Source: Octopus vulgaris (taxonomy: Eukaryota). From it: DNA of 64,000 nt. Positions 536-57,530 of the stretch are shown piece after piece (the first letter of the stretch is position 1; the number at the start of each line of letters is the position of its first letter). Both the position numbers and the translations under genes were made by a program. Below the pieces are notes generated by a model that saw only the letters and a program-made list of their open reading frames with translations, had not been told where the DNA came from and did no database searches. The stretch covers positions 50,530,001 through 50,594,000 of the forward strand of contig OX597831.1 in NCBI GenBank assembly GCA_951406725.2. The letters are read 5' to 3'.

Positions 536-619
<84 letters not shown>

Positions 620-16219: not shown

Positions 16220-16786
16220 TATGAGATGGATTTGATTACTATACTATTTATTGTAGATCCAGTGCCCAGGCTGAAGCTCCTTTTGTCGTTTAGTGTCTCC
16301 CTCGTTGGTTGATTTTTTATAGGCTCGCACTTGAGCATCTTGTAGTTTGTAATTGCTCCTGCTTTTTTAGTTCTCAATGAATTATGTGCAAACGTTTCTT
16401 ATCGGAGATTGCTTTACACATATTTACTACTTTGTTACGTCATGTAGTTAGGGGCGTTAGTGAGAAAGTATCCTTATGACGCCTATAATATTCAACAGGA
16501 ATTATATGGCTTTATATGGCTACAGATCTACAAACATAAATTTGTTCTGATATAGCTTTCTCCTGTGATGATGAGAAATGCAGTTAAAAGTTCGGTTCCA
16601 GTGGGACTTGAATTTAGATATTATTTATCACTAAGTAAGATATGAAAAAACAGAAAGAGACGAGTAACAGACAAGTAAATGCATTAATCAGTGCTTCAGT
16701 GTCAAGAGTGAAGGTAAAGAGAGAAATATTTATATCGTACTTAAACTGTCATTACATTTCTTCAGCATCAAATAGCGAGCATATGA

Positions 16787-30748: not shown

Positions 30749-31200
30749 TTAGCGGGAACAACCGACTTCATTTTGTTGTTTTTGTGTATTGTGTGCAATT
30801 ATATTTTTAAAGTTATTAATAGAACTAAAACTAATTTTTATATTATGTCTATTAACGAGCCTCCTATAATAATTATTGACTGGAAAATGCCTATCTATAA
30901 GTGATAAGAAATATCTACTTATACTAAAGGTCATTTCGGGGAAGTAAGGTGTTGTGAACCAGATAATCTTTCTGTTCCCATTCTTCCTCCTCTTTATTTC
31001 TGCACTAATAACAGCTCTATAGGTTATTTCCTCGCTAAAACCACCATTTTTTAGAGCTTTATTATGTATTCGGGCAATACTATTAGAGATGTTTATATCG
31101 GAGGAGAGTCTAGAAATTATCTTGCTAATGTTTTTAGCTAAATTCTTAAACATAATGGGAGGATGGCAGGAACCTACATTAATATAGCCAAGTCAATGGT
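30749..31200 (-). mobile_element. Penelope-like element fragment (post-RT linker)
   Basis: HPPIMFKNL..ISRLSS...RKIIWFTTPY...FLSLIDRHFP...NRHNIKISFS matches the PLE 'IIWFNPPYS...LIDKHFP...KVSYSC' pattern. Confidence 0.8.
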
Positions 31201-31239: not shown

Positions 31240-31590
31240 CTAAATTTTCCAAGTTTAGGAACCTTTCCAAGTTGTTGAAGATGACGATTAACAGTTGTAT
31301 GGTTTGAACTAAGCTTTATTGCCAATTCTTCAACTGATGATGCAGGATTTTCTTCAAGTAATGCCTCTAGGAGCTTATCTTCAAACTCAACTGCACGTCC
31401 TGATCGATCTTCATCTTCAAGGTTGAAATCTCCACTTCTGATTTTTGCAAACCGTCTTCTGCAAATTCTTTCATTCAAACATTCTTTCCCATAAACTGAG
31501 TGCATGTTTCGAGTCGCTTCGGCTGCAGAGTTTCCTTTTTTTGTACACATAAAGCATTATGTACCTCAAATGCTCTTTGGATACTTCCAT
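31240..31590 (-). mobile_element. Mariner (Mos1-type HTH) transposase 5' fragment
   Basis: ATG at 31590; MEVSKEHLRYIML, then KKGNSAAEATRNMHSVYG...RSGDFNLEDEDRSGR...HLQQLGKV. Confidence 0.9.
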
Positions 31591-31656
31591 GTTAGAAAGG
31601 GTTTTAGTCAAAGAAATTTTAATTTTATTATTCTGTAAAATAATATTTAATTAATA

Positions 31657-32354: not shown

Positions 32355-32743
32355 CCTATATGTATGTATGTGATTCGATTAATTAATTTAGATATTTATA
32401 CAGAATGCGTTAAAGTAAAACTACCGATTAAGTATAGAATCTGGAATTAAACAAATTATTGAAACAACTACATTCATATTATAGACATCGATAAAACACC
32501 AGATGTATTCAATAAAACAGTTTTGATTGGCATTCCCCAAAATTAACTTTTAATTAAAAAACAAGATAAGCAATTTTCGTTTCATTGCAGAAGTAAGCAG
32601 TTTTGATGGAATAGATAGATAAATAAATTTAAGAATACTCCTATCAGCTTCGTTTTTTTTTTCTAGTATGATATCATTTATTGTATAATAACTACTAACT
32701 GAGAACTAATAATCATAAAAGCACATACTGTTAATGCAATAAA

Positions 32744-33375
32744 CATTTTATCATTAATTAAAATCTTAGGGTAGCAAGAATATTCATAGAAAAATTCTTA
32801 GTTACCAGTGGTCTAGCGAGAAAGAAAAAATTAGTCAATAGACTATATATTATTTAAAGAAGAATACAGTGTACGTTAAAACACAAAAGAATAGGATATC
32901 TGACTTGCTAGAAAGAGCAGTTAAAACTCCAAGCCACCAATTGTTGTAATTCCGAAAGTGATTGGAAAATAAAAACTTTTACTTTAATCCTAGATCCTGC
33001 AAGGTTTCTGCAGACTTAAATACAGACTGAAATAAAGTAACCTCAGCCTATATCTGGCGCTGCTTCTTCAGTAGGTTGCCAGGACTGAACACATAGGCAC
33101 GGAGCGATAAATAACCCGGCACGTGTCTATAGGTTCTAATTTTTCGAATCTACCGCGCAGAAGCGGAACTCAACACTAAAAACATAAATTGCCGATTTTC
33201 TTCCAGAATTAGCCAAAAAACATTTTATCAATAATTAAAATCTTAGGGTAGCAAGAATATTAATAGAAAAATTCTTATTTTCCAATCACTTTCGGAATTA
33301 CAAAAATTGGTGGCTTGGAGTTTTAACTGCTCTTTCTAGCGAGTCAGCTATCCTATTCTTCGGGTATCTCTTTTG
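32744..33375 (-). mobile_element. Non-coding hammerhead-bearing retroelement (retrozyme-like); 477-bp unit + 60-bp terminal redundancy + 5' inversion, 15-bp TSD
   Basis: Direct repeat 32741-32800 / 33218-33277; 33277-33360 is an inverted copy of 32887-32970; TSD tgttaatgcaataaa at 32729-32743 and 33376-33390. Confidence 0.75.
32989..33075 (-). ncRNA. Type I hammerhead ribozyme motif
   Basis: Reverse complement: CCTA-CTGAAGA-A-GCAG..(long G-U-rich stem)..CTGC-A-GAAA-CCT-TGC-AGG-ATC-TAGG; stem I CCTA/TAGG; one extra A in stem III. Confidence 0.75.
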
Positions 33376-33760
33376 TGTTAATGCAATAAAGATACAACCC
33401 GCATCCGTCTGTTTAAGCAAATATAAACGGTTCGTATTGGAATTCGCAAGCTCCAAAAAAATGTGTTTACCCACTCGCCTGCAAATACACAAATACGATT
33501 GTTAATACAATGACTTTAACCAACTTCAAATTAATCCACCTAGACTGTACACCATGTTACCGCTCTAAGCACGGGATACTATATCGGAAAATTAGGTTAA
33601 TATAATCGTAGCTGTCTAGTAAGAAGCTTGCTCTTTAATCACAAAGTACCGGATGCCGTCCCATTGCGTGGTGCCTAGGGTAAGTGTCTGCTACTATAAC
33701 CTCAAGTCGACCAAAGGCGTGTAGGTGGGTTCGATATACGGAAATGTATGTATACACATA

Positions 33761-33925
33761 GGCGCAGGCGTGGCTGTGTGGTAAGAAGCTTGCTCCTCCA
33801 CCAAATGTCCCCGGGTTCAATCCCACAGCGTGGCACCTTGGGCAAGTACCTTCTACTATATGCTCAGGCCCAGCAAAGTGTTGAGAGTGGATCTGGTAGA
33901 TGGAAACTTAAAGAATCCCGTTGTG

Positions 33926-33985
<60 letters not shown>

Positions 33986-34242
33986 CATATACATATATAA
34001 CATGTATATATCCATGTGTATGTCTTTGTGTCTGTGTTTATCCCTCCATTATCGCTTGACATCCGGTGTTGCTGTGCATACGCCCCCGTAAGTTAGTGGT
34101 TTTCAACAAAATAGATTGATAGACTAAGTAACAGGCTGAAAAATAATAAGTTCTGTAGTCGATTTATTCGACAAAAAACCCTTCAATGTGGTGCTCCAGT
34201 ATGGCCACAGTCAAATGACGGAAACAAGTGAAAAAGAAAAGA
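33761..34242 (+). mobile_element. SINE family A, preceded by a decayed head at about 33605-33745
   Basis: ggcgcaggcgtggctgtgtggtaagaagc...accttgggcaagt...(TA)n...gacggaaacaag. Confidence 0.85.
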
Positions 34243-34252
34243 AGGATATATA

Positions 34253-34387
34253 AGCGCAGGCGTGGCAATATGGTAAGAAGCTTGCTTCCCAACCAAATGG
34301 TTCCGGGTTTAGTCCCACTTCGTGGCATCTTGGGCAAGTGTCTTCAACTATAGCCTCAGGTCGAACGGAAACTGAAAGAAGCCCGTC

Positions 34388-34448
<61 letters not shown>

Positions 34449-34650
34449 TGTACGTCTGTGTTTGTCCCCTTACCATCGCTTGACAACCGTTGCTGGTGTA
34501 TTTATTTCCCTGTAACTTAGCGGTTCGGGAAAATAGAATGATACAATAAGTACCAGGCTTGCAACGAATAAGCCCAGGGATTGGTTTGTTCGACTAAAGA
34601 TGGTGCTCCAGCATGGCAGCAATCTAATGATTGAAACATGAAAGATAAAC
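34253..34650 (+). mobile_element. SINE family A, tandem copy with internal deletion
   Basis: Same head, core and tail as other family A copies. Confidence 0.85.
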
Positions 34651-34671
34651 GATTAATATATCTGAAAATTA

Positions 34672-36062
34672 CAGTTCTATATTTAAGAGAAGAGGAATTA
34701 TGTACATTATTTACATTTGACGGATATTTGTCACGTTTCGGCACTATCGGTGATTCAAGATAAACTAATGACAGACACCCATCTAAAAGAACGCACTAGT
34801 ATACCAATAAGAAACTTGATGGAAATGTTGACATTCTGTGTAGAATCTACCAACTTCAGTATGGATGCTGATATATATATATCGGCAAGAAGTGACTTTA
34901 GATATGGGATCGCCATTATCACCGATAATAGTCAATATATACATGGAATACTTTGAGAATTTGGTTTTAGGATCAACACCACTAAAACCAATCCTATGGC
35001 TGCGATATGTTGATGACACCTTTATACTCTGGCCCCACCAGGAAGATGTCCAAGTGCTGTTAGATCATGTGAACGCAATAAAGCCATACATACAGTTCAC
35101 AGTGGAAAAGGAAAAATACAATCAACTAGCATTCCTGGATGTATTAATAACACGCACCAAGTATGGATTCAGGACATCCGTATACTGCAAGCCGACCTTT
35201 ACTGGACGATACCTCAAGTTCAATTTCCACTATCCATACAGTGTAAAAAGATGGATTGCTGTGTGCCTAAAACATCGTGCAAAGAATATAAGTAGCGATC
35301 GTGATGCACACCACGAAGAAATGATCAAGCTCAATAACAATCTAATAAGCAACAACTACCCCCAAAACGTACTACCCACTCCAATTATGAAGAAAAGAGA
35401 TCAAGTCAATAAACTGTCCACAAAGGCCTCTCCGAAAAGATACAAAAGATATGCGGCCCATATGGCATCAGAACAGTATTCAAGACTAATAAAACACTTC
35501 GCAAATATCTCCTTCGAGCAAAACCACCAATAGAAGAGAATATGACCAAAGACTGCGTGTACTCCATGCCATGCAGCTGTGGTAGGTTATACAAAGGCGA
35601 AACATGCCGCCCTCTCAAAATAAGGGTAGACGAATATCGCAAAGCTGTGACACGAGGAGATATAGATAAATCGGATATAACTGATCATGTATGGAAAAAT
35701 GGAGACCACCTCACCCTGTGGGATGAAGTTAAAATAATAGACAGAGAACACCACTGGAAAATACGAACATTAAAAGAAGCAGCACGTATGCTAGGACACA
35801 ACAGCCTCCTAAGCAGACCGAGTGCAGATATGACTAGCATATGGGAACTGGTATTAAGGAAGGATAGAAAAATATTTGATTAATAAACCTTAAAAATTCA
35901 CTCCATAATTGCCCACGGGCATATGGCATAGTTGTTAAGAGCACAGGCTACTGATTCCGAGTTCGATTCCATAATAATATCAATAATAATAATAATAATA
36001 ACAACAACAACATCGAAAAATACCTTAAGAATAAGAAACCAGGTTCGAAATTTCCCCGTCAA
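34672..36062 (+). mobile_element. Penelope/Poseidon-type PLE, 5'-truncated, with inverted terminal piece and 12-bp TSD
   Basis: MGSPLSPIIVNIYME, WLRYVDDTF, LAFLDVLI, VYCKPT; GIY-YIG CVYSMPCSCGRLYKGETCRPLKIR; TSD atctgaaaatta at 34660-34671 and 36063-36074. Confidence 0.93.
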
Positions 36063-38394
36063 ATCTGAAAATTAGGCTAAAATTCTTGGATGGGCGTCTC
36101 TTTGAGGGCAATTGTCTACTATTTCTGACAAAGCAATCGACCAAATGAAAGCACTTCATTACTTGAGAGTTTGTATGAATGGCATGTAATTGTTTGATGG
36201 ATGCGTGTAATAGACTGTTGTGTGGGTGTCAGGCACTCAATGGTAAAAGATAATTTTCAGAAACCGACTGATGGTGGAGTAGTCGTAGCTGTCGCTGTTA
36301 TTGCTACTGCTGCTGTTATCGTTGGTATTGTAGTTATTGCTGCTGTTTTTCTTTGGGTTTTTTTTTGTTTTTTTGTCGTTATTTCTTACTACTATTATTT
36401 TTTTCTTTTTCATGTAACCCTGAACGATGAGCAACGACATTTCACCAACAATCACACACTTTTTACACTTATTTTTTATTCTGACAAAATGTATCCAGGA
36501 CTACATTATTTACTGTACCATTCCTTTCATTCGATTTTTTATTATATGTTTCTTTCATTTTCTTAAAGACGATGTCATGTGATAATGTAATACAAGATAG
36601 ATTTGACCGTTATTTCAAATATTTCTAGCGATCTTATTCAGGTTTTCTTCTTTAAATTATAGTCACTGGTGCAGTCTTTTGCTGTTGCTGTTGTTGTTGT
36701 TTTTGTTGTTGTTGTTGTTGTTGTTGTTGTTGCTGAGGTTACTACTGCTGATGTCTTTGTCATTGTTAATATTGTTAACAGCATCATGGCCGTTGTCACA
36801 GTCGTGAAATACCTATTGTGCAAAGATGGCTATGTTTTTCATTCTTCAATCAGACACTAATTCTGAACGCTTCTAATTTTCTGTCAATTTAATAGAACCA
36901 GACTTTCTCAGATCTTAGGCATCTGTTCATCCATTGCTGCCTGTTTGGAATCTTTAATCTCTCTCTCCCTTTTTTCCCTTTCCCTCTCACTCCCTCTCGT
37001 TCTCTCCTTCTCTCATTCTATATATTTGTGTGTGTGTGTGCGTGCGTGTGTGTGTGTGTGTGCATGTGTGTGTGTATGTGTATGTGTATATATATTTACG
37101 TATCATGAAACACCTCAGATAATGGTCATAGTGTCTTACCCTTAATTCTATATTGATTTTAATATAATTCCACACATTGAAATTCAAAACAATGATATAA
37201 GTTAGGGTAAGTTGATTTTAGAACTGTAATGTTGGTCTAGTCTAGATTACTTTAAAGTAATCCTAGGTACTACCTACAAGACGATGAAGCTAGTAATAAC
37301 CTGGATTATAACTAACTGCTTGTACGGTAGCCGCCTGGATAATTTATCCTTATATATATGCGTACACACAAATATATATATATATATATATATACATATG
37401 TGCATACATAAATGTGTGTGTATGTGTGTGTAAATAGCAAAGATTTCATTCTACAGGAAAAAAAAACATTATTTACATTGTCCCTAAATGAAAAAAATAT
37501 AGTTACTGATTACCTTTAATCCTATAAAAATATAATTATCTTTACCATTTTTACCATCATTTTCATCATTGTCATCATCGTCATTATTATAGACAGCACA
37601 CCACCATAATCCTTATCCGAGGAACACCGATATCTAAATTCAATGCACTAACATCAAAACTTAGAAAAATTGGCCCATTGGTGAAGCCTTTCTATTTTAT
37701 CGCTCGATTTACTAGAAATAGACGTCCGATTCACTCACATCCTAACCTGCCGTCTTAAAAATATAAACAACTACAAAAACATATTAAACTATATATTCTT
37801 TAGACAAGCCCGTCCAACAGAAAATTTGAACGAGATGGGAATGCATTGGATGATATGTCTGTTCTATCACGATTCACCTGGAACTGAACAGCAGTAATAA
37901 CAACAATAACAAGTACATGAACAACGATAACAACATCGTCGACAACAACAACATCACACCAACAAAAGTCCGCTCAAAATTCAGACATTTACATACTTAT
38001 AATAACTAAAGTCTCTTTAGATTAATATTTGTCTCGTCATACGGCCGATGGTCGGCTAAGTCGTTAAAATATCAAAGAATTAGTTTACAATATTTACATT
38101 TACACAGGTTTCCTCGTCTTATTTGCTAAAATAGTTCTGAGAACAAGTTTGTCTTATAATCCTCTTGATTACTGGAATGCTTTTATTAGTTTGTTCACGA
38201 ATCTCAAATCTGTGGATTTCTGTCAATGATGGAAATGAATAGTAATTTAGTTGTATTTCGTTACGTTCTCATTCCACCGAGTTTGACTTCGTTTTCCATT
38301 ATATTTTCCTGTTTAGTGTGGGCGGCGCGGCTTCCAACTTAAATATGTCTTTCTAGTACATCAAACAAAATGCACATTGGCATTTCTTCCGGCC

Positions 38395-38760
38395 TTACGT
38401 TTTGGATTCAAATTTCGCCGATATCGATTTTGCCTTTCCTCCTTTCAGAGACTATGTAATAAGTATCAATTGAACACATGGGTCGATGTAAATGACTTGA
38501 CCCTCCCACAAAATGACAGGCCTTGTACCTACAGTAGAAATGATTAATATTATTTCTAAGGGGTCGAGCTCCTAGAATCATGAGCACATAGGTCAATATG
38601 CTTAATGGCATTTCCTCTGAGTTCAAATTGCTCCGAGGTCGACACTATCTTTTGTCCTTTATGAGTCGATAAAATAAGCACCAGTTTAAAAATGGTGTCG
38701 ATGCAATCGACTAACTCTCTCCATCTACAATTATTGGCCTTGTACAGAAGTTTAAGATAT
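38395..38760 (+). mobile_element. Two decayed SINE family C-related copies
   Basis: ttcaaatt..gccga..tcga.tttgcctttc and ccgaggtcgac...gtcgataaaataagcaccag motifs. Confidence 0.6.
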
Positions 38761-38813
38761 TGTTAATATTAGTATTATTATCAGTTGTTTCATCATCATC
38801 ATCAGCAGCAACA

Positions 38814-39140
38814 GCAATGGCCCAGTGGTTAGGGCAGCGGACTCGCGGTCGGAGGATCGCGGTTTCGATTCCCAGACCGGGCGTTGTGTGTGCTTATTGA
38901 GCGAAAACAAATAAAGCTCCACGAGGCTCCCGCAACTTTCTTTCACGCTTTCTTCCTGTTTCTTGTCTCCGACTTCCTACGCAACTGCTGAGCCTGGATG
39001 CGCATTCATCCATCCGTCGATGCTCTCGGTGTCGGTGGCGGGGATAACCTGCTTTCTCTTCTGCGGGTTTTACGAATAGCAAAGGACCACATTTCGGACT
39101 TCTCCCATCTTGCGAGCTCTGGGACGAAGACCGTTCTCTC
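38814..39140 (+). mobile_element. SINE family B, tail type 3
   Basis: Family B head, then a distinct tail ending gggacgaagaccgttctctc; lies within (CAG/CAA)n. Confidence 0.85.
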
Positions 39141-40829
39141 AACAGCAACAGCAACAGCATGAGCAGTGTTGTAGATAGCAGAATTCTCAAGTCGCCGGTC
39201 AAAAAACATTTGCCTATGTAATTACATCCGCTGTATACTTCATCTGTAATACAGTAGTGGTTAAACCGTTGTCTTCTATTCTTTATGTCATGATAAAACA
39301 CGCACCAGTTGTAGCTGCTTCGTCTATTGTAAGGAAACGACGTAGAATCTTTTCTTTATTGGTTAGAACTGCCCATCATATAATACAAAGAGTCTCATGC
39401 CAAAATGTGTTGCAAAATTAGAGGTATGCATAATCTCGTTGTGAAATATTATGCAGATTATGACACAAGTAACCCTTTAGTGATTGCTGGTAAAACTTAT
39501 GTGGCACCTAGGCTTTCTGCTTTCCACTGCTAAAAGTAAGTCTTTTAACTGGTTAACATGCACCCTTGAAACCTTCGTAGTCGGAAATGCGGTGAACCGA
39601 TATCTACTCTGTTGGAAATCTGCAACTAAGGATACTTTTATTCATGCAATGTGACATGAAATGCATAAAGAAAGTATTTCACTCCTTTAGCTTGGTGGTG
39701 TGTCGATTGGAATATCCCTGCCCTTTTTCTCCTGTTTGGAGTGACGGTTCAGCTACTTCACAAATAGGTAGCACAAGTCAACAATCACGAGCTTGAGTAT
39801 AAAACTATTTTCATTGAAGAAGTATAGTTTGAGCAATTTGGTGACACATTATATTTACTAATGATATAACGATTCACAGCACCCTTAAACACATGAAAAA
39901 TTATTCTTCCTCTGTCCCTTTGAATTAATGGGGCAAAGAATGATATATTTAGTGAAGCCTGATATCTTTAATGTACAGCTTTGAAAAGGAAGAAAAATTA
40001 ATTCGAGCACAACAATATACAAAGTCAGCACAGAAATACGCCGAAGAAGAAACTATACGATGTGGTTATCTCTTAGAGAACATAAAGTGTATATAGAAAG
40101 TTTTTAGCATTTGTATTATTCTCGGATTTACCTCTTTTATTCAATGTGCAAAATCAATTCATAACCACTGGATAGATACACGAGATATGTATTTCTTGCA
40201 CCTTTGTTTTAAAGTATAAGTGTTGCTGTCTATTAAGAGACAGTGACAAAGGAACCGCTGACAGGTATAATATAAATATTTCTAACTTATGATATCCGGG
40301 AATAGACATGATTCACTAAATAAGGAAGAGTTAAGTCTCGATTAAGTCTATGACAGTCAACAATGCAACAGGCAAACAAAAAGCAACAATATCATTAAAT
40401 ATAAAACACAAAAATAAGATAAAGATAAAAAAGCAAGTATTAAATACATCCATTAAAAACTTATTTCAAAGCAGAGGAACTACTGTTTTGTTTGTTTATT
40501 TCTTTTTCGCTAAAAATCCAGCTGACGGTTTACATATACGAATTTTTTACTTCCTGAAGTCATTTCCGTAGACCAGAAACATAGCTATTACTTCACTATA
40601 GAAATGACAAAAGATATTCTTTTAAAATAAAATTTACAATCATTCATCATCAGGAAGGAAAGGTATCTCCACGTCGTACGTAGGTGTATGTAAGATAATA
40701 TACGTACAGAAATCTGTGATATATATATATAAACATGTGTGTATGTGGCTTTGTGTCTATATGTGTTATATATATATAACACCACATATAGACACAGACA
40801 TGTACACACGTATGTTTATATATATCTGC

Positions 40830-40878
<49 letters not shown>

Positions 40879-42444
40879 AGAGAAAGAGGGAGACAGATTA
40901 ACGAATACATAAACGTGGTGGGAGTTTGTGTGTGCATGTGTATGTTGCATATATCCAATGTCTTTGGCTGTGTATATCTGATGTGTGTGTCTGCGTATCT
41001 GCGTATATCTGCTTTTGAAATTGATATAGCACTGGATATGTTGAACAGCATTAGCATTAGCAACGTCATTCATGCCATTCTTGACACCAATGGACGATGG
41101 AACAATAAAGAACGTACAATGTTTTCTTTTCAATGTAATAAATTCCACCCAGATGATATAAAAGTCACCATCAACTACGCTTCTAGACATTGCTACAGAA
41201 AATTACACGTACCGTACAGAGAGTTAAGAATGGAGAACATAAACATTTACAGAACATCTAAACTGTTAAGGCTCCACACACATTATTATAAATCTCTATA
41301 GTGAACTCACAACAAAACAAGTTGGGTTTTGTATATCGTACACTATTCAAAATAAACATAATGTTAGATACTTTTTTTAAGCATAAGAAGCTTGTCACAA
41401 CATTGCCAACCTCATGAATGGCAAAAGATGTCCAGCATTTGATCTACTGTATATAGTTATTTCGCTACACACAAAAGTCTACGTCTAGGTTATGCAAAGA
41501 AACAAAGAAAATGTTTGGAAATAGTAAAAATATTTAAAGGAATTGTGTTATATATTGGGCCGATCATTATTTTGATAATGGACACGCACTGGTTATATTT
41601 CAGTTCTTTTATTATTATTAAAGTAGTTAATTATTTAACCTATTAACTAATCGATTTGATGGGGTCACGAATGGGGATGAGAAGACTTTGACAAACATAG
41701 CTACCTGATTGATTGACTGAACGATCGATTAATCAAACAATCATTTCATCGATTGATCCAAACGTCAAACAACTGATGAATAATAACAAAAGAAATGAAA
41801 TAACCTCTATACAAATTTTTTTCATTGCCATAATGACCATCACCACTCCAAGGTACAGAGAGAAGTCCCTGTATCAGTACATGAGTTTGCATCAAGTATG
41901 CTGCAAGCAAAGTCTGAAAACGAAATATTTCAACAGAGTAATTAGAGAAGATAAAAAAGTAATTAAATACAGGGCGTGCTACGATAGCAATATGTTTAAT
42001 GCTGTAGTTTTTGAGGATGCCACGACCAATAGTGGAATCGCAAATAAGTATAAGAAAATCTGATAAGCAACTAATCTTAGTATTAAATTTGAGGAGAAAA
42101 TAAATTCATGTAGATCCATCACAAAGACTCAGAGTAAGAATATCGTATCTATACCTCCAGAGGTTGCCATGTCAAGTCAAATAGAAAGTAAATCAGTTTA
42201 CAAGCGGAGAAACGTCAGTATATCCGAGTGTAGCATTAGCATTTCACGATATATACGAAGTGCTGTTATTCCCCATTGGAATTGATGATCATATAGTAAC
42301 AGACACACTCTTGCTCACACACAAACAGCAACATAGGCGCAAGCACACACGCAAACACAAATACATATATTCATTAAGATCGGAAGCAGTTGAAACAATC
42401 CATATATACATACATAGACACACACACACACACGCGCGCAAAAA

Positions 42445-42817
42445 CATTTGACTACGGCCATACTGAAGCAACCACCTTTACTCGAACAAATCGACCCCAG
42501 ATCAACTTATTCTTTGTAAGCCTAGTACTTATTATATCGGTCTTTTTTGCCGCACAGCTAAGTTACTGGGACATAAACACACCAACACCGGTTGTCAAGC
42601 GATGGTGCGGGGAACAAACACAGACACAAACTTACACACACATTCACATATATATATATACACGACAGGCTGCTTTCAGTTCCCGTCTACCAAATCCACT
42701 CACAAGGTTTCGGTTGGCCCGAGGCTACAGTAGAAGCCACTCGCCGAAGGTTCTATGCAGTGGGACTGAACCCAGAACCATGTGGTTGGGAAGCAAGGTT
42801 CTTACCGCACAGTGCCT
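42445..42817 (-). mobile_element. SINE family A
   Basis: Reverse complement matches family A head, core and tail. Confidence 0.85.
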
Positions 42818-42831
42818 CTAAAGCCACGGCA

Positions 42832-42870
<39 letters not shown>

Positions 42871-42914
42871 CATACATACATACATACATACATACATACA
42901 TGCATGCATGCATA

Positions 42915-43120
42915 TACCGCGTGTATACCGTTGGCGTTTTTTTCCCTCTGTCTTCCCTTCTCTGGATCTTTCCTTCGCCTATGCTTCCGACGAAGAGCTC
43001 CGCTCGAAACGTTAGACCCTCCTTCTTCCCTTCCTTCCTGAGCGTCCAATAATACTATATTTGTTCCACGTCCTCGCGTTGTTGTGTTTTCTCTTTGTGT
43101 TTTCATGTTTGGATTAACTA
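42915..43120 (+). repeat. Short interspersed repeat with a minimal hammerhead-like motif (probable PLE terminal remnant)
   Basis: CCGACGA-A-GAGC-TCC-GCTC-GAAACGTTA at about 42987-43014; 3' part recurs at about 56180-56240. Confidence 0.6.
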
Positions 43121-43554
43121 TATATATACATACATGCATACACGCATACACACATAATATTCATACAAGTCCATTTGTAGTCATAGGTGTGTGTATGTAT
43201 GTATATAAGTATGTATGTATTTGTGTATATGTGCGTTTGTGTGTGCGAATGAGTATATGCCTGTGTATATGTGAGTCTGTGTGCATGTGAAATTAGGAAT
43301 ATTATTTCTCAATAAATTTTAAAATAACAGGAGAAATTCGTCTTGAGTGAGAGTCTAAGTAGCCTTTGACAGCTTATTTAAACATTCAATCAGCAGCGTT
43401 AATTTTATTTGTCTTTGCCAAAAACAAGACTCATATTTTGGTTGCAAACGTAATTATCACCAAAAAAATCGAAAGAAATATTGTTCGTTACTAGTTATTG
43501 TTTTTGTTGATGATGATGACGGTGAGGAGGAGGAGAAGGAGGGATAGATGGAGA

Positions 43555-43631
43555 AGAGAAGAAGAAGAAGAAGAAGAAGAAGAAGAAGAAAAGAAAATAA
43601 GAAGAAGAGGAAGAAAAGAAGTAGTAGCAGT

Positions 43632-43670
<39 letters not shown>

Positions 43671-43704
43671 CAGCAGCAGCAGTAGTAGTAGTAGTAGTAG
43701 TAGT

Positions 43705-43766
<62 letters not shown>

Positions 43767-43873
43767 AAGAGGAAAAGGAAGAAGGTAGTAGTAGTAGTAG
43801 TAGAAGAGGAAGAGGAAGAGGAAGAAGGTAGTAGTAGTAGTAGTAGAAGAGGAAGAAGAAGAAGAAGAAGAAG
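43555..43873. repeat. Compound (GAA)n/(GTA)n/(GCA)n trinucleotide tract
   Basis: Direct reading. Confidence 0.95.
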
Positions 43874-44467
43874 ACAGGAGGAATCCTCGTTGAGCTGTGA
43901 TCCAGAAGAGATAAAATCAAAGAGCTTCCAGTTATGATGATGATGTAGAATTATATTTTAAAACGCGATCCCTCTGTGGACCACGATTACGTCCCGTCGT
44001 TGTGGATTTTCATTTCCGTTTTTTTTTTTCTTTTTGCTTTTGTCGGGTTTTTGCTGCTCGTCATTTTGCTTTTGCTGTTGTTGTGGTTGTTTTTTTTTTT
44101 TGTTTTTTCTTGAGCCGCAGGCCAAATTCCGATCCGGTAAACTTATGATCAGCTATTCCAGTGTTTTCTCTCTTTCGCTCTTTTCAGTTATTGTCTTCTT
44201 GAAATTATATTATTTTACTCTCTCCCCCCTCTTCCGCTTTCATTAAGGCGGCAGACATTGTTAGAGTAGTTTCGTGATCACTACGGCGACGAAATCTAAC
44301 AACCACAGAAAAGAAAGAATTCCCATAATAATGGCTCACTATGCTTACTTGGTGTGCTGGCGATCTTGTTATTGTTGCTGTTTTTGCTATGACCGTATTT
44401 GCTAGTGATAGGTCGACTATAATCGAGCATACGTATTATCCAAGCACTCCAGCCGTGGCTATGCAGC

Positions 44468-44500
<33 letters not shown>

Positions 44501-44978
44501 TCACACACACACACACTATTTACCGTGTTAGCGCACACTTTATTTATTCAGATTGTCCTTACATTCTTTGAAACACATTCTGAGGCGAACTGTAGTGTTC
44601 GCCATGGTACCTAATATTAACAACTTTAGCGAAGATGCGCTGATTCTCTCCCCTCTTTGTTGATTCATAAAATTTGGTTTAACGTGAAGATGAAAGGAAA
44701 GCTGGCTCCAGAATTTTATTGCACAAAAGAAATTTTATACTTATAATACATAATGAACAGTCTATAGTCTGGTGTTCTTGTCTGCATCATATTAATCATA
44801 TTACACGCAGTGAACATTACGTGATTTTTAAATTATGTGTTAATTTAATAAATACCTATCATATCGTGTGGTCAAAGTAATTGGCTATCAGGTCTCCTGT
44901 AACTTGATTAATATAGTCTTAGAATATATATATATATATATACATACATATATATGTATATATATATATATATGTATG

Positions 44979-45073
<95 letters not shown>

Positions 45074-45227
45074 TATGCGTGTATGTAAATGCGAATATAT
45101 TTATATATAATACATACACACGCGCTCTTATGCATATGTGTTTGTGTGCACGTGTTTGTGAGTATGTTTGCGATTGTATGGTTAGTACACACAGAGACAT
45201 TCACAGATACACAAATAGTCTTACATT

Positions 45228-45273
<46 letters not shown>

Positions 45274-47006
45274 CGTAAATACTATATGCCCAAATGTTTA
45301 TAAGTTTTATTTAAGTTCTCACATTCTCCAATCTTTCTGGGTTCTCTTCTGAATCCTTCACCCTACCTAACTATTTTGAATCTGTCTATCTGTCAATGAA
45401 GAAATCAGTCAATCTATCTATTTATCTATGAATCTATCTATCTGTCTATCGATTTTACTAACTGAATATCTATCGATCAGTCTACCCATCTGTCTCTCCC
45501 TATATTTAATGTGTAATATGTACACAATCAGATTATTCCTTATGTATGACGTACACTTTAACATGAATATCTGTACAAATACGCACATAATACATGGATA
45601 CATACACACAAGCCTTAGAAAACACACATACAAACACACATACACACAGATACACGAACACGAACAATCAAGAATAGAAATATATGACAGAGCTATCATA
45701 TCACCCCTACTCATATATCTCACATTCTTTTACTCCTTACCTTCTCATATCTTCCTTTCCCTCCCCCACACCCCTCCCATTCTCCCATTACATTACCTTG
45801 ACTACTAACTAACATTCCTTTTCTCACTTCTTTCACCCTTTTTTCTTTTTTCTTTTTCTCTCTTTCTTCCTCTCATTTTGTCTTCCTGTTTTCATTTTGA
45901 CCTATCTCCTTTTTCTAATCATATGCATCTATCCTCCTACCATCTATCTACAAATACTACCAATACATTCTCAAAGTTTGATTCACACCACAGCACCCTT
46001 TCGAACGAGCCACACTGACTCCCTGGCTCCATACTTTGAAATGACATGAACTGTTACTGGAACTTACATAAGATGTACAAGAAAGTTTTTACCACTTCTT
46101 TACATCATTTTCCTCGAATAATGGAACTGCAACTACAATATCTTTATATATCTTATTTCTACTTTCATTCTCTTATTTCCCTCTACATTCCGTATCTCCT
46201 CCTTTTCCACAATAATTCCAACTCAAATATTTTCTCACACTGTCTCTGACAAAATGATATCCATAACATCCCAGAAACAGGTGTAAAACTATTTCATTAT
46301 AAATGTCCTGAAAACTCCTCACAACCTTGGCTATTTTTATGGATATATGCGAGTAGATTTGTATGTAAACATGTGTGGGGGGAGGCTGGTATCTCCTGTG
46401 TTGTGGTTTGTCCATGTATGTGTATGTGGGCGCACGTTTGCATGTGTGCGTGTCTGTGTTTCTTAACAAACCAACCGTAAAGAAGACAATTGAAATTTAA
46501 ATGTACAGGCCAATCATATTTAGCGTTCGATTCTTAACTATTTCTGAACATAATACTGTATATGTGTCATAGTCGAAATTATGGAATGCACTCGCATGTA
46601 CATTTATACACTTGTGGAACTTAATATCATGTAAACCAATGTTTTTATTTTTCATTTTATATGTATATGCCGATCGTTAATGCTTTGCATGGTACTGTAG
46701 TATAATTGTTGTTGTTGTTTTTGCTATCATGTTGCTAACCGTGTGATGCATATAATGTTTTGCTGGTATTAATGTTATTAATAATAATAATAATGATATT
46801 AGTAGCAATAGTGGTAATGATAATAGTAATAATGTTAATATTAATGACATTTTGTAACTTAATATAATGTACTCTTGACTTTGTATATCTGCATTTGAAT
46901 ATGAATATGTGTATGTTTTCTACATTGTAATATCATAATATTATGTTGACCAATTGTAACATTGAATATAGAACATATGTATGTATATTGATTTATATTA
47001 TTATTA

Positions 47007-47044
<38 letters not shown>

Positions 47045-47159
47045 AGTATGGGTATATGCACTCATATATATGTGTATATTATATATCATTGGTATATACC
47101 CACTCTTGTATGGGCGTACCTCCTCTGATATTCATATTTAATTTAGTTTGTATTTCATA

Positions 47160-47286
47160 ATCTCTGAAGAGGCCTAGGGATATTTTTGTAAGTGTCTCAT
47201 TTATAACTACATATTGACCTATCACACATGGATAATATGAGCATAATGAGACACACATATCTGCATGGCCGAAACAGCTGTAAGAT
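47160..47286 (+). ncRNA. Type I hammerhead ribozyme motif with extended stem II
   Basis: ATCT-CTGAAGA-GGCC...GGCC-GAAA-CAGCTG-TA-AGAT; core intact; internal pairs gtgtctcatt/aatgagacac, gatat/atatc, catatt/aatatg. Confidence 0.8.
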
Positions 47287-47661
47287 GTAGTTTATATTTA
47301 TATTTGTATTTATTTATATTCACTTATACATACTGTACATATTGTATCATATTACTCTTTCATGTACATTATTTTGTTCTATATTATTATGTTTGACCTT
47401 AATGTTCATATATAGTGGTTTAATAAATTATGTGATTGGGTATCATCTGGTAGTTGATCATTGATTAAGATGTGTTTCTCCATTTTCTTATTTTGTATAT
47501 ATATATATATACATATATATACACATATAGATATATATACATACATATATATATATATACGCACATATATATACGTACATATATATACATATATATATAC
47601 GTACATTTAAATGCATATATATATACATGCATATACATATATATACACATATAAATACATA

Positions 47662-47734
<73 letters not shown>

Positions 47735-48184
47735 ACAATAATATTTGAAAACGATAATATTTTAAAAAAATACCGTTATGTGGCCGCGAGCATAAGCCTT
47801 ACAGGCAAATTAATAAAATATATATATACAAAAGTACTACATAAGAACCTGCTTTGCTAAAAATAGAAGATAGAATCTTCTAAGCCACATAAGAATCACA
47901 AAATTATTACAGGCATGATAATAAAAAAAAATTAGTGAACCTATCTCGGCCGAGAATGCAAGAGGAATGGTGGTTAATTTGATATCATGATTCCGAATTT
48001 AGCGTCAAAGGTGCCTGATTCTCCTTAGTCAAACCTGCCAGAGGCGACTACTAGAATTCCCCCCACCATGCCTGCAGATTCATTTGAATGCTCCAGCATC
48101 GTTGAAAGAAAGGAAATACGTGAAATTATTTGAAAATAAATATGCGAACGATGATATTTCTAAGAATAATATTGTGCATGTACA

Positions 48185-48590
48185 TAGGAGTGACTGTGTG
48201 GTAAGTAGCTTGTTTACCAACCACATGGTTCCGGGTTCAGCTCCACTGCGTGGCACCTTGGGCAAGTGTCTTCTACTATAGCCTCGGGCTGACCAAAGCC
48301 TTGTGAGTGGATTTGGTAGGCGGAAACTGAAAGAAGCCTGTCGTATATATGTATATATATATATGTATGTGTGTGTGTTTGTGTGTCTGTGTTTGTCCCC
48401 CTAGCATTGCTTGACAACCGATGCTGGTGTGTTTATGTCCCCGTCACTTAGCGGTTCGGCAAAAAGAGACCGATAGAATAAGTACTGGGCTTACAAAGAA
48501 TAAGTCCCGGGGTCGAGTTGCTCGATTAAAGGTGGTGCTCCAGCATGGCCGCAGTCAAATGACTGAAACAGGTAAAAGAGAGTAAAGAGA
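48185..48590 (+). mobile_element. SINE family A
   Basis: Near-consensus copy. Confidence 0.9.
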
Positions 48591-48611
48591 AATATATGTT
48601 TGTGTGTTTGT

Positions 48612-48641
<30 letters not shown>

Positions 48642-48644
<3 letters not shown>

Positions 48645-48890
48645 GAGGCGCAATAGCCCAGTGGTTAGGGCAGCGGACTTACGGTCGGAGGATCGCGGTT
48701 TCGATTGTGTGTGTTTATTGAGTGAAAACACCTAAAAGCTCCAGGAGGCTCCGGCATGGGGTGGTGGCGACCCCTGTTGTACTCTTTCGCCCCTACTTTC
48801 TCTCACTCTCTCTTCCTGTTTCTTGAGTGACGCTGCGATGGACTGCGATGGACTGCGATGGACGCTGCGATGGACTGGCGTCCTGTCCAG
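48642..48890 (+). mobile_element. SINE family B, tail type 4 (ctgcgatggactggcgtcctgtccag), 3'-truncated
   Basis: Family B head; tail contains four tandem ctgcgatgga units. Confidence 0.8.
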
Positions 48891-48899
48891 CATATATAT

Positions 48900-50060
48900 A
48901 TGCTGACCAAGATACTCTCCTTGGAATGTGACCAACTAAGCTTTATTTTTCAACATAGTCCCCTATGCAGTCCCCATATTTTTCCATCGGTGTTGCAGTT
49001 CTTTGTTCCTATTGGTGAACAAGATTTCATCCTCTTGGTAAAAAATATATAAACAGCACACATGACGTCATCATTTCTGCAATACTGGTTCTCAGTCAAG
49101 TACTTTTTCAAGTTGGGTAATAGATGATATTCAGATGGAGCCAACTCATCAGTCATTGAAACCAAGGTCTTGTGTGCTGGACATTGGTGAGACATGACCC
49201 CTTTCTTCTGTTTTCCAGGGCGTTTGGTCTCGCTAGCCTTTTGTAACTGTCTCAGCCAGTTGGCATAGTTCTTTTCATTGATGGTGTGGCTCTTTTGAAG
49301 CACAATGCCTTTTGCATCCCCAAAATCTGAGATTATCAGATGAAACGATCATGGGCTTCTTTGAAGCTGAGGAAAATGGGTATTTCCACTTCATGGATTG
49401 TCTCTATCTCATCCTGTGTTAGGAAGCCAGCTGCATTGCCTCAAACAGTGTCAGATGTTCCCGTAATGTGATCAGCCCGGTGTGTGCTTTTGATCAGTTT
49501 AGACTTAGAAGATAAGGAACCACTCGAGCAGAAAAGTCTTCTTTATGCCAAGATTTGTGTGCAGAATATTCTCAACTCTCTCACGATATATGCAAATACC
49601 ATTGGCTATTTGATTTATAGTCAATCACATGACATCCATCACCAATTGGTGAATACGGCCAATGTTTTCCACTGTAGTGGCAGTTGCTGGAGGTTCAGAT
49701 CTTGTGTGATCATCACGACTCCCCCTGCACCTCCTGAATTCAGCTGCCTACTTTTGCACTGTTGATAAAGATGGAGCGTCATTCCCTAACGTAGCAACCC
49801 TTGTCTGCATGAATGTCCTTTGGGGCTAAAAACTATTCCTGCAGGTATTTGATAACGCTATGATACCAAATTTTGTCCATTTTCAAAAGTAGTCGCTACT
49901 ACTTACATTTGAAGTCTTCTTTCAAGAGTCAGATATCGGGTTACCTGGAACGAAGAAAAGTAGTTATTAATAAGAAATGTTGAAATTAAAGTGTACGAGA
50001 TTTCACAACTCTACCATCACTCCTTCATAAACAGTCTATGAACTTTTCAGCCCACCCTCA
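48900..50060 (-). mobile_element. Degenerate mariner element
   Basis: TIR-like GAGGGTGGGCTGAAAAGTTCATAG at the right end; ATG at about 49880 (MDKIWYHSVIKYL); KRPGKQKKGV..H..PAH, ELAPSEYHLLPNLKK. Confidence 0.88.
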
Positions 50061-50107
50061 TGTGTGTGTTTACGTCTGTGCGTGAGAGTGTGTGTGTATT
50101 TGTGTGT

Positions 50108-50168
<61 letters not shown>

Positions 50169-50665
50169 AGTGTGTATGTGCGTGGGTATACATAAGAAAA
50201 ATGGGTGAAGATGCACAATAACATGAAAATATTTGTTATAATCTTTTTAGAAAAATGAAAAGACGAAAGCAGGTGTAATTTTTCATTTAGACATATTAAT
50301 CTTTGTAACTTGCATGGAAACTAAAAAGTTTTAATAAAATAAATGAAATATCACATCTGAATTTTGTCTTTTGTATAACAATTGTTTTCAAGTTATTGTG
50401 AATCAGCCGATTTTCGTTCGTTAATAGAATACCACTTGTATGGAAAATATTAATGTTCACTGTGTGTATGTGTGTGGTTGTGTGTGTGAGTGGTTGCGTG
50501 TGTATTTGTGTGAGTCAGTATGTATGTATATATGTATGCATATATATATACACACATACACACACATATATATAACATATATAACATGTATGTAACATAT
50601 GTATATATGCGGTGGTGCCCCAGCATGGCCGCGGCCTTCGGCCTAAACACTTTTGTGGAATTTAA

Positions 50666-50714
<49 letters not shown>

Positions 50715-50832
50715 AAAGAGTTGAAAATAAGCTGAATGTTTGTACACATAAAAGTTTTTTTTTAAGTAGGAGAAGTGGGAGGTAAATATTTTTATTGTAC
50801 ACTTACATGCATGACAGTAAAACACAAAACTA

Positions 50833-51226
50833 TTCTTTTATTCTCTTATTTGTTTCAGTCATTTGACTGCGGCCATGCTGGACCACCTCATTTAGTCGAA
50901 CAAATCGACCCCAGGACTTATGCTTTTGTAAGCCTTGTACTTATTCTATTGGTCTTTTTTGCCGAACCGTTAGGTTACGGGGACGTAAATGCACCAACAT
51001 CGGTTGTCAAGCGATAGTAGGGGGACAAGCTCAGACACACAAACATATACATATATATTTATACGACGGGCTTCTTTCAGTTTTCGTCTACCAAATCCAT
51101 TCACCGGGCTTTTGTTGGCCCGAGGTCATAGTAGAGGACATATGCCCATGGTGCCGCGCAGTGAGACTGAAACCGGAATCATGTGGTCGGTAAGCAAGAT
51201 ACTCACCACACAGCCACTCGTGTGCC
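50833..51226 (-). mobile_element. SINE family A
   Basis: Reverse complement matches family A. Confidence 0.85.
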
Positions 51227-51629
51227 TACATGTTTACACATTGAATGTTTTCAAAAGGAGCATGTTTTTCAAAAATGCATGTTTTCAAAAGGAGACCTTA
51301 ACACACAAACCGCATTCCCTATTGAAATGCTTTCGCATAGAAAAATCGTTTTTGCATAAAAATATTTTACTGAATATATGTTGTAGCCGTGTTTTCTACT
51401 AGAAAAAATATCATATTTTGTTGACCAGGGTCAGTTTTTGCTATACCTCAGATAATCAAGCTCGAAGCTACGTAGTGGTAAATACATGCGTGATTAATCG
51501 TATGTAGTTACGCTGCATATTTAATTTCCAAGAAAGGCGCGTAATTTTCGATTGTTGCCATACAATTTTTGGTTTAAATAAGGGTATATGAAGGCGTGGT
51601 TGTGTGGTAAGAATCTTGCTTCTCAATTA

Positions 51630-52964
51630 ATTCTGTGCGACACTTACTCTTTCCTTAGCCCCTTTCACCCTTTCTACGTTCCTTCCACTTTTCTTTTTCT
51701 CGCTCCCACCATCTCTCACATTTCTTGGCACTCTCTTCGTTCTCTTCACTTTCCCTCTGCCTTTACCTCCTTTGTAAACATAAGGACACAGGAAATGTGT
51801 CAAGGCCGACAGGAAGTGGTGCTTCCTAGAGCTAAATAGCAATAGTACTCTTCCCTTTCATACGACTTGTCACATTGACAACATGCCAACATGACAAACG
51901 GTAATTTTTTGTCCTACGGGGATAAGAAAATTTCTGTTAAATTTTTATTGAAAGATTTTGAATTGTTATTTTTTAATCCTTTACAGGTTCTTTTTGCTGA
52001 AAAATTTGTTCCTTATAAAAATGAAAGAGAAATTATTTTCGGAGCTGGAGTCTCGATATCCGGAAGATGTAAGAAACGTCAGCTCCGAGGTGGCGGATGG
52101 GAAACTAATTGTCAGCCCGGCTGCCCCACCGAGAGAAAGCCAAGCGGCTACACCAAGCAAAGAGAAAAATGGGGAGGGAGGCAAATTTGTGCAGTCCTTC
52201 CTCCAACTTAAACTGTAAGTACACCTTAAACATTTTTTACCTATGAATGTGCGTGGTCTGGGATCGAAATGGAAACAAATTTGTTTACTGGACGACCTCA
52301 GGTCACATGATATAGATGTGTGCATTGTCACTGAGTGGACCACAAGTGTTCTCGCCTCTCTTGAATGGCCACGAGAAATGTATTGCTCATAACCGACATG
52401 GAGGAGGGGGCGTGGTGGTCTTATTCAGGAAGAACTTGGACTTGTAGGTAAGTACTGTCTTTCTGAACACAGAAAGTAGTCTGGTCGTCCTGGATGTAAC
52501 CTACGTGAGTAAACAGTCCTTCGGGTTGGTAGCTGTCTACGCTCCTGACGAGCGTAGGCAGTCTGGCATTTTTTACGAGACCTGGAGCACTTTCTAGTGA
52601 CGTTAAAAATAGTAGTTCTCTTAGGAGACTTTATCCTCGATGCACGGTTGGATAGTGTTGGCTCGACTGATAGGAAAGGAAATCCTGCCCTCAAGGATTT
52701 ACTAGAGCGCTATAATCTAGTAGACCGTTACAGACTGGATGAGCTGAGCGTTCCACAGTGGACGTGGAGTAATAACGACGGTGCACGCAGATCTTACATG
52801 AGTATAGTATTCGTTAGGGAAAGAGATAGGGTTACCTTTAGCTGTCCACGATTTTTTATTGTATCTTACACGGACCACAAATTTGTGACATGTCAGGTAC
52901 GCGTAGATAAATGTCATAGACAGGCACCCGGGTCCTGGAAAATGAACAAGTCTATTTTTACTTG
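51630..52964 (+). mobile_element. Tx1/L1-clade LINE 5' fragment (ORF1 remnant + endonuclease)
   Basis: MNVRGL, GGGVVVLF, LVAVYAP, VLLGDF, LVDRYR..PQWTW, TDHKFV, GSWKMNKSI. Confidence 0.85.
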
Positions 52965-53439
52965 TAAAAAGGCTTCCAAATAAAGAAGCGCTTCTTTATT
53001 TGGGAGACTTTTATTGTATTTCTATAATATATAGTCTAGTGACTAATTCATCTTTTGTGCTGGGTCACTGGTAATAATAATATATTTTTTATTACCCTAT
53101 TTACTATGTTAAAATATTGCTTGATAAATTTGCTCGTAAATTTTTTACCGGCATCTTCTCTGTCGCCGTGTATGATTTGTGGCTGCGCACTGGTTTGAAA
53201 AGTTAGGGTATACAAATCGTTGCCTCTAACGGTCTGTACATCTAGGATTACAAAGGCTCCCTACTGATGATTCTTGCCTTGGCAGATAAATTCTGTTTGT
53301 TTGCTAAAAATAGATGAAACCGTCGGTCTAGGATTAGCTGAGTTGGTAAACGTTTTTAATTTTCATTCCTTTCATGAATTTATCCCTTTTTGTGTGTCTA
53401 GCACAGCGCTTCTTTATTTGGAAGCCTTTTATTGTATTT
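52965..53439 (+). mobile_element. Non-coding hammerhead-bearing retroelement (retrozyme-like); 418-bp unit + 35-bp terminal redundancy + short 5' inversion
   Basis: agcgcttctttatttgg..ttttattgtattt at 52987 and 53405; about 52965-52992 is its inverted copy; blocks homologous to the 32744-33375 element. Confidence 0.72.
53260..53332 (+). ncRNA. Type I hammerhead ribozyme motif
   Basis: CCTA-CTGATGA-T-TCT...AGA-T-GAAA-CCGTCGG-TC-TAGG; GUC cleavage triplet at 53326-53328; stem I CCTA/TAGG. Confidence 0.8.
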
Positions 53440-56941: not shown

Positions 56942-57346
56942 GGGGCGTAGGAGTGGCTGTGTGATAACAAGGCGGCGAGCTAGCAGAATCATTAGCACGT
57001 CGGGCGAAATGCTTAGCGGTATTTCGGCTGCCGTTACGTTGTGAGTTCAAATTCCGCCGAGGTCGACTTTGCCTTTCATCCTTTCGGGGTCGATAAATTA
57101 AGTACCAGTTAAGCACTGGGGTCGATATAATCGACTTAATACCTATGTCTGTCCATGTTTGTCCCTTCTATGTTTAGCCCCTTGTGGGTAATACCGAAAT
57201 AGGTAACTAGCTTGCTTACGAACGACATGGTCCCGGGCTCAGTCCCATTGCGTGGTACCTTGGGCAAGTGTCTTCTACCATAGCCTCGGGCCGACCAAAG
57301 CCTTGTCAGTGGATTTCAGCAGACAGAAACTGAATGAAGCCGTCGT
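56942..57346 (+). mobile_element. SINE family A head interrupted by a SINE family C insertion (about 56969-57202)
   Basis: A head ggcgtaggagtggctgtgtgataac, then C element, then ggtaactagcttgcttacgaac resumes family A. Confidence 0.85.
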
Positions 57347-57530
57347 AGAGGAAACGCAAAGGCCGATACAGTTTGGCACCAGTGACGTCACAATTCATTT
57401 CTACAGATAAGTGAACTAGAGCAACGTGAAATAAATTGTCTGCTCAAGAACACAATTCCCAGCCCGGTCCGGAATCGAACTCACTACCTTATGGCTGTGA
57501 GCCCGACATTCTAACGAGTGAGCCATGCTG
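57347..57530 (-). mobile_element. SINE family D partial copy
   Basis: gatacagtttggcaccagtgacgtc...gagcaacgtgaaataaa...ggaatcgaac. Confidence 0.8.

Follow-up and report, generated by a model that had tools for sequence, protein, structure and literature searches.

A dispersed, retrozyme-like hammerhead family in the octopus genome that probably inserts in the manner of Penelope-like elements

Background

The non-LTR (long terminal repeat) retrozymes of animals are short non-coding units of low GC content with a type I hammerhead ribozyme; they co-occur with autonomous Penelope-like elements (PLEs), and the available text of two papers proposes PLE-dependent mobility for them (PMC7229834; bioRxiv 10.64898/2026.07.22.740005). 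Here we describe a comparable family in Octopus vulgaris, represented by two copies (elements A and B) in a microsatellite-rich stretch of 64,000 nucleotides of eukaryotic DNA (GenBank assembly GCA_951406725.2, contig OX597831.1, positions 50,530,001 to 50,594,000), hereafter the window, and followed through a searched genome of 2.8 Gb in 227 contigs. The GC content of the family (32-37% in head-to-tail units from 25 loci) is within the limit of under 45-50% for retrozymes. It differs from the animal retrozymes, as far as these are described in the same text, in five respects: its unit of 427-497 nt is at or above the reported 150-450 nt; stem II of its hammerhead has 40-60 nt; its copies are dispersed, 5'-truncated and partly inverted rather than arranged in tandem arrays (two hammerheads one unit apart occur at 10 of 210 distinct loci, the longest array having three units); no sequence link to a PLE terminal repeat was found; and it is known here from DNA copies. 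Copy ends are not mapped in the available text of either retrozyme paper.

Two other groups offer partial parallels. Chlamys elements such as MRC1 (Craig et al. 2021, PMC8557442) are likewise dependants of PLEs that have no open reading frame (ORF), with pseudo-LTRs and head-to-tail insertions; according to the portion of that paper available, however, the Chlamys elements mostly lack canonical hammerheads, whereas those of the octopus family covary, and the non-autonomous ones generally resemble autonomous families at the 3' end, whereas no parent could be detected for the octopus family. Hydra-clade PLEs (PMC8557442) and the Poseidon element PAc (Frangieh et al. 2024, PMC11167929), in the sections available, resemble the family in (TA)n targeting, inverted 5' copies, a hammerhead upstream of the 3' ends and two internal starts bounding an optional tail; the octopus family differs from them in being ORF-less, in a tail of 80-90 nt against the published 30-40, and in start sites that are AU-rich and blend into the (TA)n target. 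The part of PMC8557442 that treats the hammerhead calls its role in the PLE cycle unclear, and the corresponding part of PMC11167929 reports that it is dispensable in vitro, with no RNA ends at the cut. The preprint's available text presents retrozymes as non-autonomous PLE derivatives, from co-occurrence and terminal-repeat similarity in vertebrates; its supplements might list invertebrate families.

Whether the family had been described was left open by an earlier reading of the window sequence (the original prediction). The general class is known from the retrozyme papers, to the extent of their available text; no description of this family was found in the octopus literature on hammerheads, Penelope and retrozymes, and a curated octopus repeat annotation (PMC13282606) mentions neither hammerheads nor ribozymes in its text and supplement, although the sequences may already be filed in the library behind it or in Repbase. 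The octopus family behaves like a non-autonomous PLE and is retrozyme-like, a dispersed variant with a mechanism that can be read. Its individual insertions are evidence that an ORF-less hammerhead unit integrates in PLE fashion, and it offers a sign of cleavage in vivo that can be tested and a structured domain of 250 nt that is usable in the published in vitro assay; it thereby bears on two questions, the role of the hammerhead in the PLE cycle and the way in which animal retrozymes move.

Results and discussion

Copy ends and insertion pattern

The positions at which family copies end suggest, with a probability that we put at about 0.8, that this ORF-less hammerhead family is a non-autonomous PLE that depends on a borrowed reverse transcriptase (RT)-endonuclease, most likely of Hydra type, and inserts into AT-rich DNA. 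Ends were tallied in 28 distinct loci, taken in coordinate order with a hammerhead pattern, and in 126 similarity-ranked loci, a sample biased to long copies. In the first sample 25 of the 28 3' ends fall at two sites (site 1, 11; site 2, 14; elsewhere, 3), site 1 being directly before a block of sequence shared by A and B and site 2 80-95 nt beyond it; A shows a minor third site ~120 nt after the predicted hammerhead cut. An inverted 5' piece is present at 17 of 28 and 75 of 126 loci, and in the larger sample the inverted pieces end at the same 3' sites as the main copies. Microsatellite sequence lies at the 3' junction in 24 of 28 and 109 of 126 loci, and target-site duplications (TSDs) of 10-15 bp were found at three of the eight loci with no microsatellite at either end; over the family as a whole, targets are (TA)n or show TSDs of 9-15 bp. 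Most copies sit in (TA)n with an inverted 5' piece, which is the PLE insertion signature: PMC8557442 lists 5' truncation, inverted copies and microsatellite targets among the traits of PLE insertions, and PMC11167929 describes a PLE template with internal initiation at two start sites bounding a tail, both in the text available. The family thus combines 5' truncation and pseudo-LTR structure, an inverted 5' copy, two 3' ends and AT-rich or microsatellite targets, traits of non-autonomous PLEs; 3' similarity to an autonomous partner, a usual but not universal trait of such elements, was not found in 150 PLE loci and 35 alignments. At one 3' junction (L024) the ACCCTAA motif of the copy is followed at once by a few CCCTAA-like repeats, into which its end passes.

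The 5' ends of family copies are scattered, as the original prediction expected in ruling out one fixed start for all genome copies. The differing start points that it noted in A and B are not random entry into a circle: the two elements look permuted because A ends at site 2 and B at site 1, both of which are fixed, and their 5' ends are ordinary truncations rather than circular permutations.

Two window elements and the family in the genome

Elements A (33375-32744, minus strand) and B (52965-53439, plus strand) are, as first described, two ORF-less elements, each with one hammerhead and an inverted 5' piece (Table 1). No stop-to-stop frame of 120 amino acids exists inside A, and the single such frame of at least 120 amino acids at B (52558-52983) covers just the first 19 bases of the element. 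The reported terminal redundancy is a direct repeat of 71 nt (93% identity, the 60 bp originally noted being its core) at a spacing of 477 in A, and of 35 nt (94%) at a spacing of 418 in B. The inverted 5' piece comprises 102 nt, 92% complementary, in A and 26 nt in B; the 15-bp TSD noticed around A is exact, and no TSD was seen when one was looked for at B. Beyond its 102-nt arm, the inverted piece of A retains another 15 nt of family sequence that are deleted from the main copy (a 12-nt deletion), and the inverted piece of B forms a palindrome with the start of its main copy. The hammerhead cores are at the positions claimed, with two corrections: one stem III pair of A is broken by a substitution (A at 32995; G in most copies), and neither copy has more than one hammerhead. 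The same cyclic order of shared blocks, which the original prediction made dependent on a significant alignment of the two units, is borne out: rotated to the predicted cut, the units are collinear end to end in one order, with 297 of 510 columns identical and a local score of 208.5, above all of 200 shuffles (98.8 +/- 9.0, maximum 131).

Exact patterns matched the genome 535 times for the shared block and 363 times for an intact hammerhead, with 0 matches for reversed controls, and all 70 loci taken from the block-pattern list belong to the family; DNA searches gave 1848 and 1755 first-look candidates, the best 40 of each being scored. Among units measured from block to block (25 of 27 kept; L336 and L344, in which another repeat is inserted, were dropped), identity is 54-62% between A and the others and 72-97% among the others, and several subfamilies can be distinguished, two more divergent types occurring at L399/L413 and L432; the family has at least six subfamilies. 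The closest copies, one likely assembly duplicate excepted, are at least 1.3% apart, and activity at present is therefore absent or low. Copies are mostly shorter than one unit; 15 of 68 pattern-sampled copies are longer, and the longer copies continue into the preceding unit and not into an ORF (25 natural units; a three-unit array at L003). No junction flank is shared between any two of 181 family loci. Both window elements are members of this abundant, ORF-less family with its closed unit. A repeat common to several flanks was set aside as a very common interspersed repeat that also lies in (TA)n and has 11 matches in the window.

Hammerhead ribozyme and possible footprint of cleavage

A search expression with a fixed core and limited stem letters yielded 98 distinct hammerhead instances, in which the first stem I pair is A-T in 78, G-C in 15 and a mismatch or wobble in 5, the second stem I pair is T-A in 72 and C-G in 22, and one stem III pair is C-G in 81 and T-A in 11. 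In 18 chosen sequences, 99.2% of the cells of stems I and III are paired, with 13 double changes representing about three events, a level that none of 500 shuffles reaches; slid controls pair at 42% or less. The family hammerheads are real, with covarying stems, and their cleavage is predicted. The window has no Rfam match at the gathering score, and no hammerhead model at E<=10, probably because of the length of stem II. Stem II is long and stem I short, stem III is often palindromic and a base at the foot of stem II is unpaired; this form fits the PLE-type hammerheads that may work as dimers, as described in the available part of PMC4209133.

In the set of 68 copies sampled by pattern, 38 are at risk, and in 18 of these the 5' end falls 0-33 nt after the predicted cut, compared with 6 of 44 and 4 of 20 in the neighbouring bins (10 of 64 together; Fisher p 0.001, or 0.0002 against all other bins). 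Samples collected with queries just downstream of the cut show the same excess with A (17 of 37 pieces versus 3 of 20, 3 of 17 and 2 of 14) and, more weakly, with B (10 of 34 versus 2 of 24, 5 of 22 and 3 of 17). About half of the copies that reach the predicted cut stop there and the rest read through, which on the simplest reading suggests that some of the templates had their start at the ribozyme cut, and hints at cleavage in vivo and at linear templates. At one locus (L383) the 5' junction holds a duplicate of a 13-nt piece whose end coincides exactly with the predicted cut, a single case which suggests that the enzyme may have jumped to a cleaved RNA end.

A conserved multibranch RNA domain

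A multibranch fold common to nine members of four subfamilies is predicted ~60-240 nt after the cut. It has 22 predicted pairs; the five that show double changes belong to the closing stem and to the hairpin that precedes site 2. The conserved blocks of the original prediction are largely the strands of this domain; site 1 is an AU-rich linker within it and site 2 lies beyond it.

Candidate helper and parent elements

Intact Hydra-type PLEs in this genome have frames of 778-908 amino acids with RW, DKT and, at the C terminus, a GIY-YIG-like domain (12258 candidates, the best 137 scored), the CxCX5C linker being present only in a more decayed Hydra-type family; intact Neptune-type PLEs have 781-amino-acid frames. 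Hydra-type copies follow the family pattern: their hammerhead has a long stem II, and their ends lie in (TA)n, either ~45-62 or 196-218 nt after the cut. At one locus (L411), between two (TA)n arms, an inverted Hydra-type 3' end (left) and a short sense piece of a Hydra ORF end are followed by a family copy, which is joined to the ORF-end sequence with no microsatellite between; judged from this arrangement, L411 would fit one integration event that used both RNAs. Other PLE neighbours of family copies stand tail-to-tail across a shared (TA)n, and an RT fragment near L048 proved to be a separate Hydra-type insertion. A search for a parent with Hydra-type RT, divergent endonuclease and Pfam GIY-YIG queries found none in 150 loci, which sample a small fraction of the PLE families in the genome. 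A likeness of motifs between the family block and Hydra tails, suggestive by eye, was not significant against shuffles.

Several young PLE families were encountered. Two very young Hydra-type families (L217, G000:C1:119514000-119523999, and L212), with intact frames of 899 and 778 amino acids, have many copies scoring identically, one in tandem with a ~3.6-kb period; their 3' untranslated region (UTR) contains TATA-like and CRE-like motifs and a long-stem-II hammerhead, and a GT..AG stretch precedes the start codon. A young Neptune-type PLE (L312-L317; 781-amino-acid frame) has a second open frame of >300 amino acids upstream, and repeated CCAAT-like and TGACGT motifs in its 3' UTR.

Mechanism and alternative explanations

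In the mechanism that we favour for a non-autonomous PLE, the borrowed enzyme would bind the conserved multibranch domain and nick a (TA)n target; cDNA would start internally at one of the two AU-rich sites 80-90 nt apart, and the enzyme would usually fall off within one unit, while the second target strand would often prime a second, inverted cDNA. The hammerhead may cut part of the RNA pool, so that cDNA synthesis ends at the cut in about half of the cases in which it gets that far; in the remainder it would pass beyond the cut, on tandem RNA left uncut or on a circle formed by ligation, and yield the permuted-looking copies of 1.1-1.9 units. Several points weigh against this explanation or its parts. 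The base at the foot of stem II is unpaired or mismatched and stems I and III are short, and PLE hammerheads cleave poorly in vitro, according to the available text of PMC4209133. The 5'-end bins were chosen once the data had been seen, and the peak is not sharp but spans 33 nt; RNA structure at which the enzyme stalls could add to it, although no surplus of 5' ends is seen at the long stem II. Another, unexplained surplus lies 137-170 nt before the cut (6 of 9) and might mark a transcription start. No related autonomous partner was found, the 150 PLE loci holding only nested family copies and the 35 unit-versus-tail alignments being not convincingly above shuffles (lowest p 0.04). L411 is a single case and could also be an insertion with a 600-bp target deletion, and at L352 a family copy abuts a truncated member of the Neptune type, of which intact elements exist.

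This last junction, with no microsatellite between its two parts, is one ground for considering a Neptune-type rather than a Hydra-type PLE as the helper; the intact Neptune-type frames and the short palindromic stem III of a Neptune 3' UTR, which family stem III resembles, point the same way. We regard a Neptune helper as unlikely: the long stem II, the two end sites and the (TA)n ends are documented for the Hydra type, the type whose 3' ends were tallied, and L352 would also be accounted for if one element had inserted at the border of the other. Far less probable is that the copies are ordinary pseudo-LTR fragments, 5'-truncated remains of an autonomous PLE with an ORF outside the sequence that was seen. 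Most copies are indeed shorter than one unit, truncated PLE copies look alike (in the available text of PMC8557442), and a rare parent could be missed with the best 40 of ~1800 candidates scored in each DNA search; but the closed junction largely refutes this explanation, given that long copies run into the previous unit and that the 181 loci lack common flanks, and tblastn with three PLE proteins located no ORF that runs on into a unit in the sense direction, except at the L411 and L352 junctions. Among the loci examined no copy was the terminal repeat of an ORF, and the invariable attachment to a PLE ORF that the original prediction named as its alternative was not seen there. It is also improbable, if less so, that the conserved blocks are splice signals of a retained PLE 5' UTR intron, with circles, if any, arising by back-splicing. 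The motifs resemble a branch point, a pyrimidine tract, AG and GT, Hydra-type tandems have a GT..AG stretch just upstream of the start codon, and introns are retained in PLEs (PMC8557442, available text). The same letters, however, build the covarying closing stem and hairpins, with one subfamily changing GGTA to GGAA together with a compensating change, and no intron-length deletion occurs in 126 loci; the splice explanation is weakened because of this covariation and the lack of intron-less copies. In four sequencing runs, none recorded as RNA, assembled contigs span the unit and include the joint from unit to unit, in runs guessed to be RNA and in DNA runs alike, with no splice-like joint; they are silent on expression, splicing and circles.

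The original prediction of a retrozyme-like family mobilised in trans by PLE machinery agrees with these results, whereas its circular template is no more than a possibility, about half of the copies that reach the predicted cut stopping there. In the classical circular retrozyme, two cuts in a dimer free a monomer that is ligated into a circle; this circle serves as the main template, and every copy longer than one unit records rolling reverse transcription. Such a course can be envisaged here: the 10 loci with two cut sites one unit apart could release a monomer, about half of the copies read through the cut, and five natural units fold better as circles than shuffles do (z -2.5 to -5.7, 30 shuffles each). 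Two rounds in one locus share subfamily variants with no recurrent round-specific difference (an apparent round-specific variant in B proved sporadic), the unit has been kept closed despite divergence to 54-62% identity, and circles have been shown for other animal retrozymes (PMC7229834, available text). A circle nevertheless has no 5' end and leaves the pile-up at the cut unexplained; two or more full units are present in only 1 of 126 loci; rounds within a locus are 0-11% apart, copies having decayed by 1-10% between rounds, so that this test cannot tell a circle from a homogeneous tandem; and unprocessed RNA is the dominant PLE substrate in vitro (PMC11167929, in the text available). Copies that stop at the cut, about half of those that reach it, agree with cleaved linear RNA, and read-through is equally compatible with uncleaved tandem RNA and with a circle. 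A circle as main template is accordingly a possible but somewhat doubtful explanation, and a circular RNA stage of any kind can be proposed only tentatively. A wider version of the non-autonomous PLE explanation is slightly more doubtful still: the family might have persisted for long as a circular-RNA parasite of Hydra-type PLEs, its thousands of insertions preserving a record of the entire cycle, helper chimeras included. The suggestion that the domain both recruits the enzyme and fixes the two starts, with cut-stopping cDNAs made on linear RNA and read-through cDNAs on circles, is speculative to the same degree. If true, this whole-cycle scheme would make the family the first case of a genomic footprint left by hammerheads cleaving PLE templates in vivo, and Hydra-type retrotransposition would have in it a minimal natural substrate.

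Features of the window

Table 1. Positions of the parts of elements A and B in the window
Feature	Position	Strand	Description
TSD of A, 5' copy	33376..33390	minus	15 bp; exact direct repeat with 32729-32743
Inverted 5' piece of A	33259..33375	plus	unit positions ~5-121 after cut; 3' end at minor end site; 102-nt arm complementary to 32887-32988
Main copy of A	32744..33277	minus	1.1 units; 5'-truncated; 3' end at site 2
Type I hammerhead of A	32989..33075	minus	predicted cut between 32993 and 32992
Multibranch RNA domain in A (predicted)	32767..32911	minus	closing stem, TAGTC/GACTA hairpin, GGTA/TACC hairpin
3' end sites in A	near 32845-32850 (site 1)		site 2 directly beyond multibranch domain (32767..32911); from end tallies
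TSD of A, 3' copy	32729..32743	minus	
Inverted 5' piece of B	52965..52992	minus	26-nt arm, 100% complementary to 53405-53430
Main copy of B	52987..53439	plus	1.08 units; 5'-truncated; 3' end at site 1
Shared block and 3' half of structured domain in B	53025..53099	plus	60 nt at 80% to A, E 2e-9; first-round tail between sites 1 and 2
Type I hammerhead of B	53260..53332	plus	predicted cut between 53328 and 53329

An interspersed repeat of 420 nt that encloses a (TA)n tract, likely a short interspersed nuclear element, occurs in about ten copies in the window (343-854, 15870-16222, 33763-34661, 42445-42812, 48186-48597, 50831-51222 and 57202-57347), and family copies are sometimes found inside the (TA)n tract of this repeat (L002). 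A decayed Hydra-type PLE fragment (30788-31200, minus strand) is joined to a fragment at 31240-31600 (minus strand) that, judged by eye, we take to be of a mariner-type transposase. An inverted repeat pair of 259 nt, 97% complementary and 6.1 kb apart (14656-14914 and 21041-21299), possibly marks the two ends of a DNA transposon as its terminal repeats, or else represents an inverted arm of a PLE.

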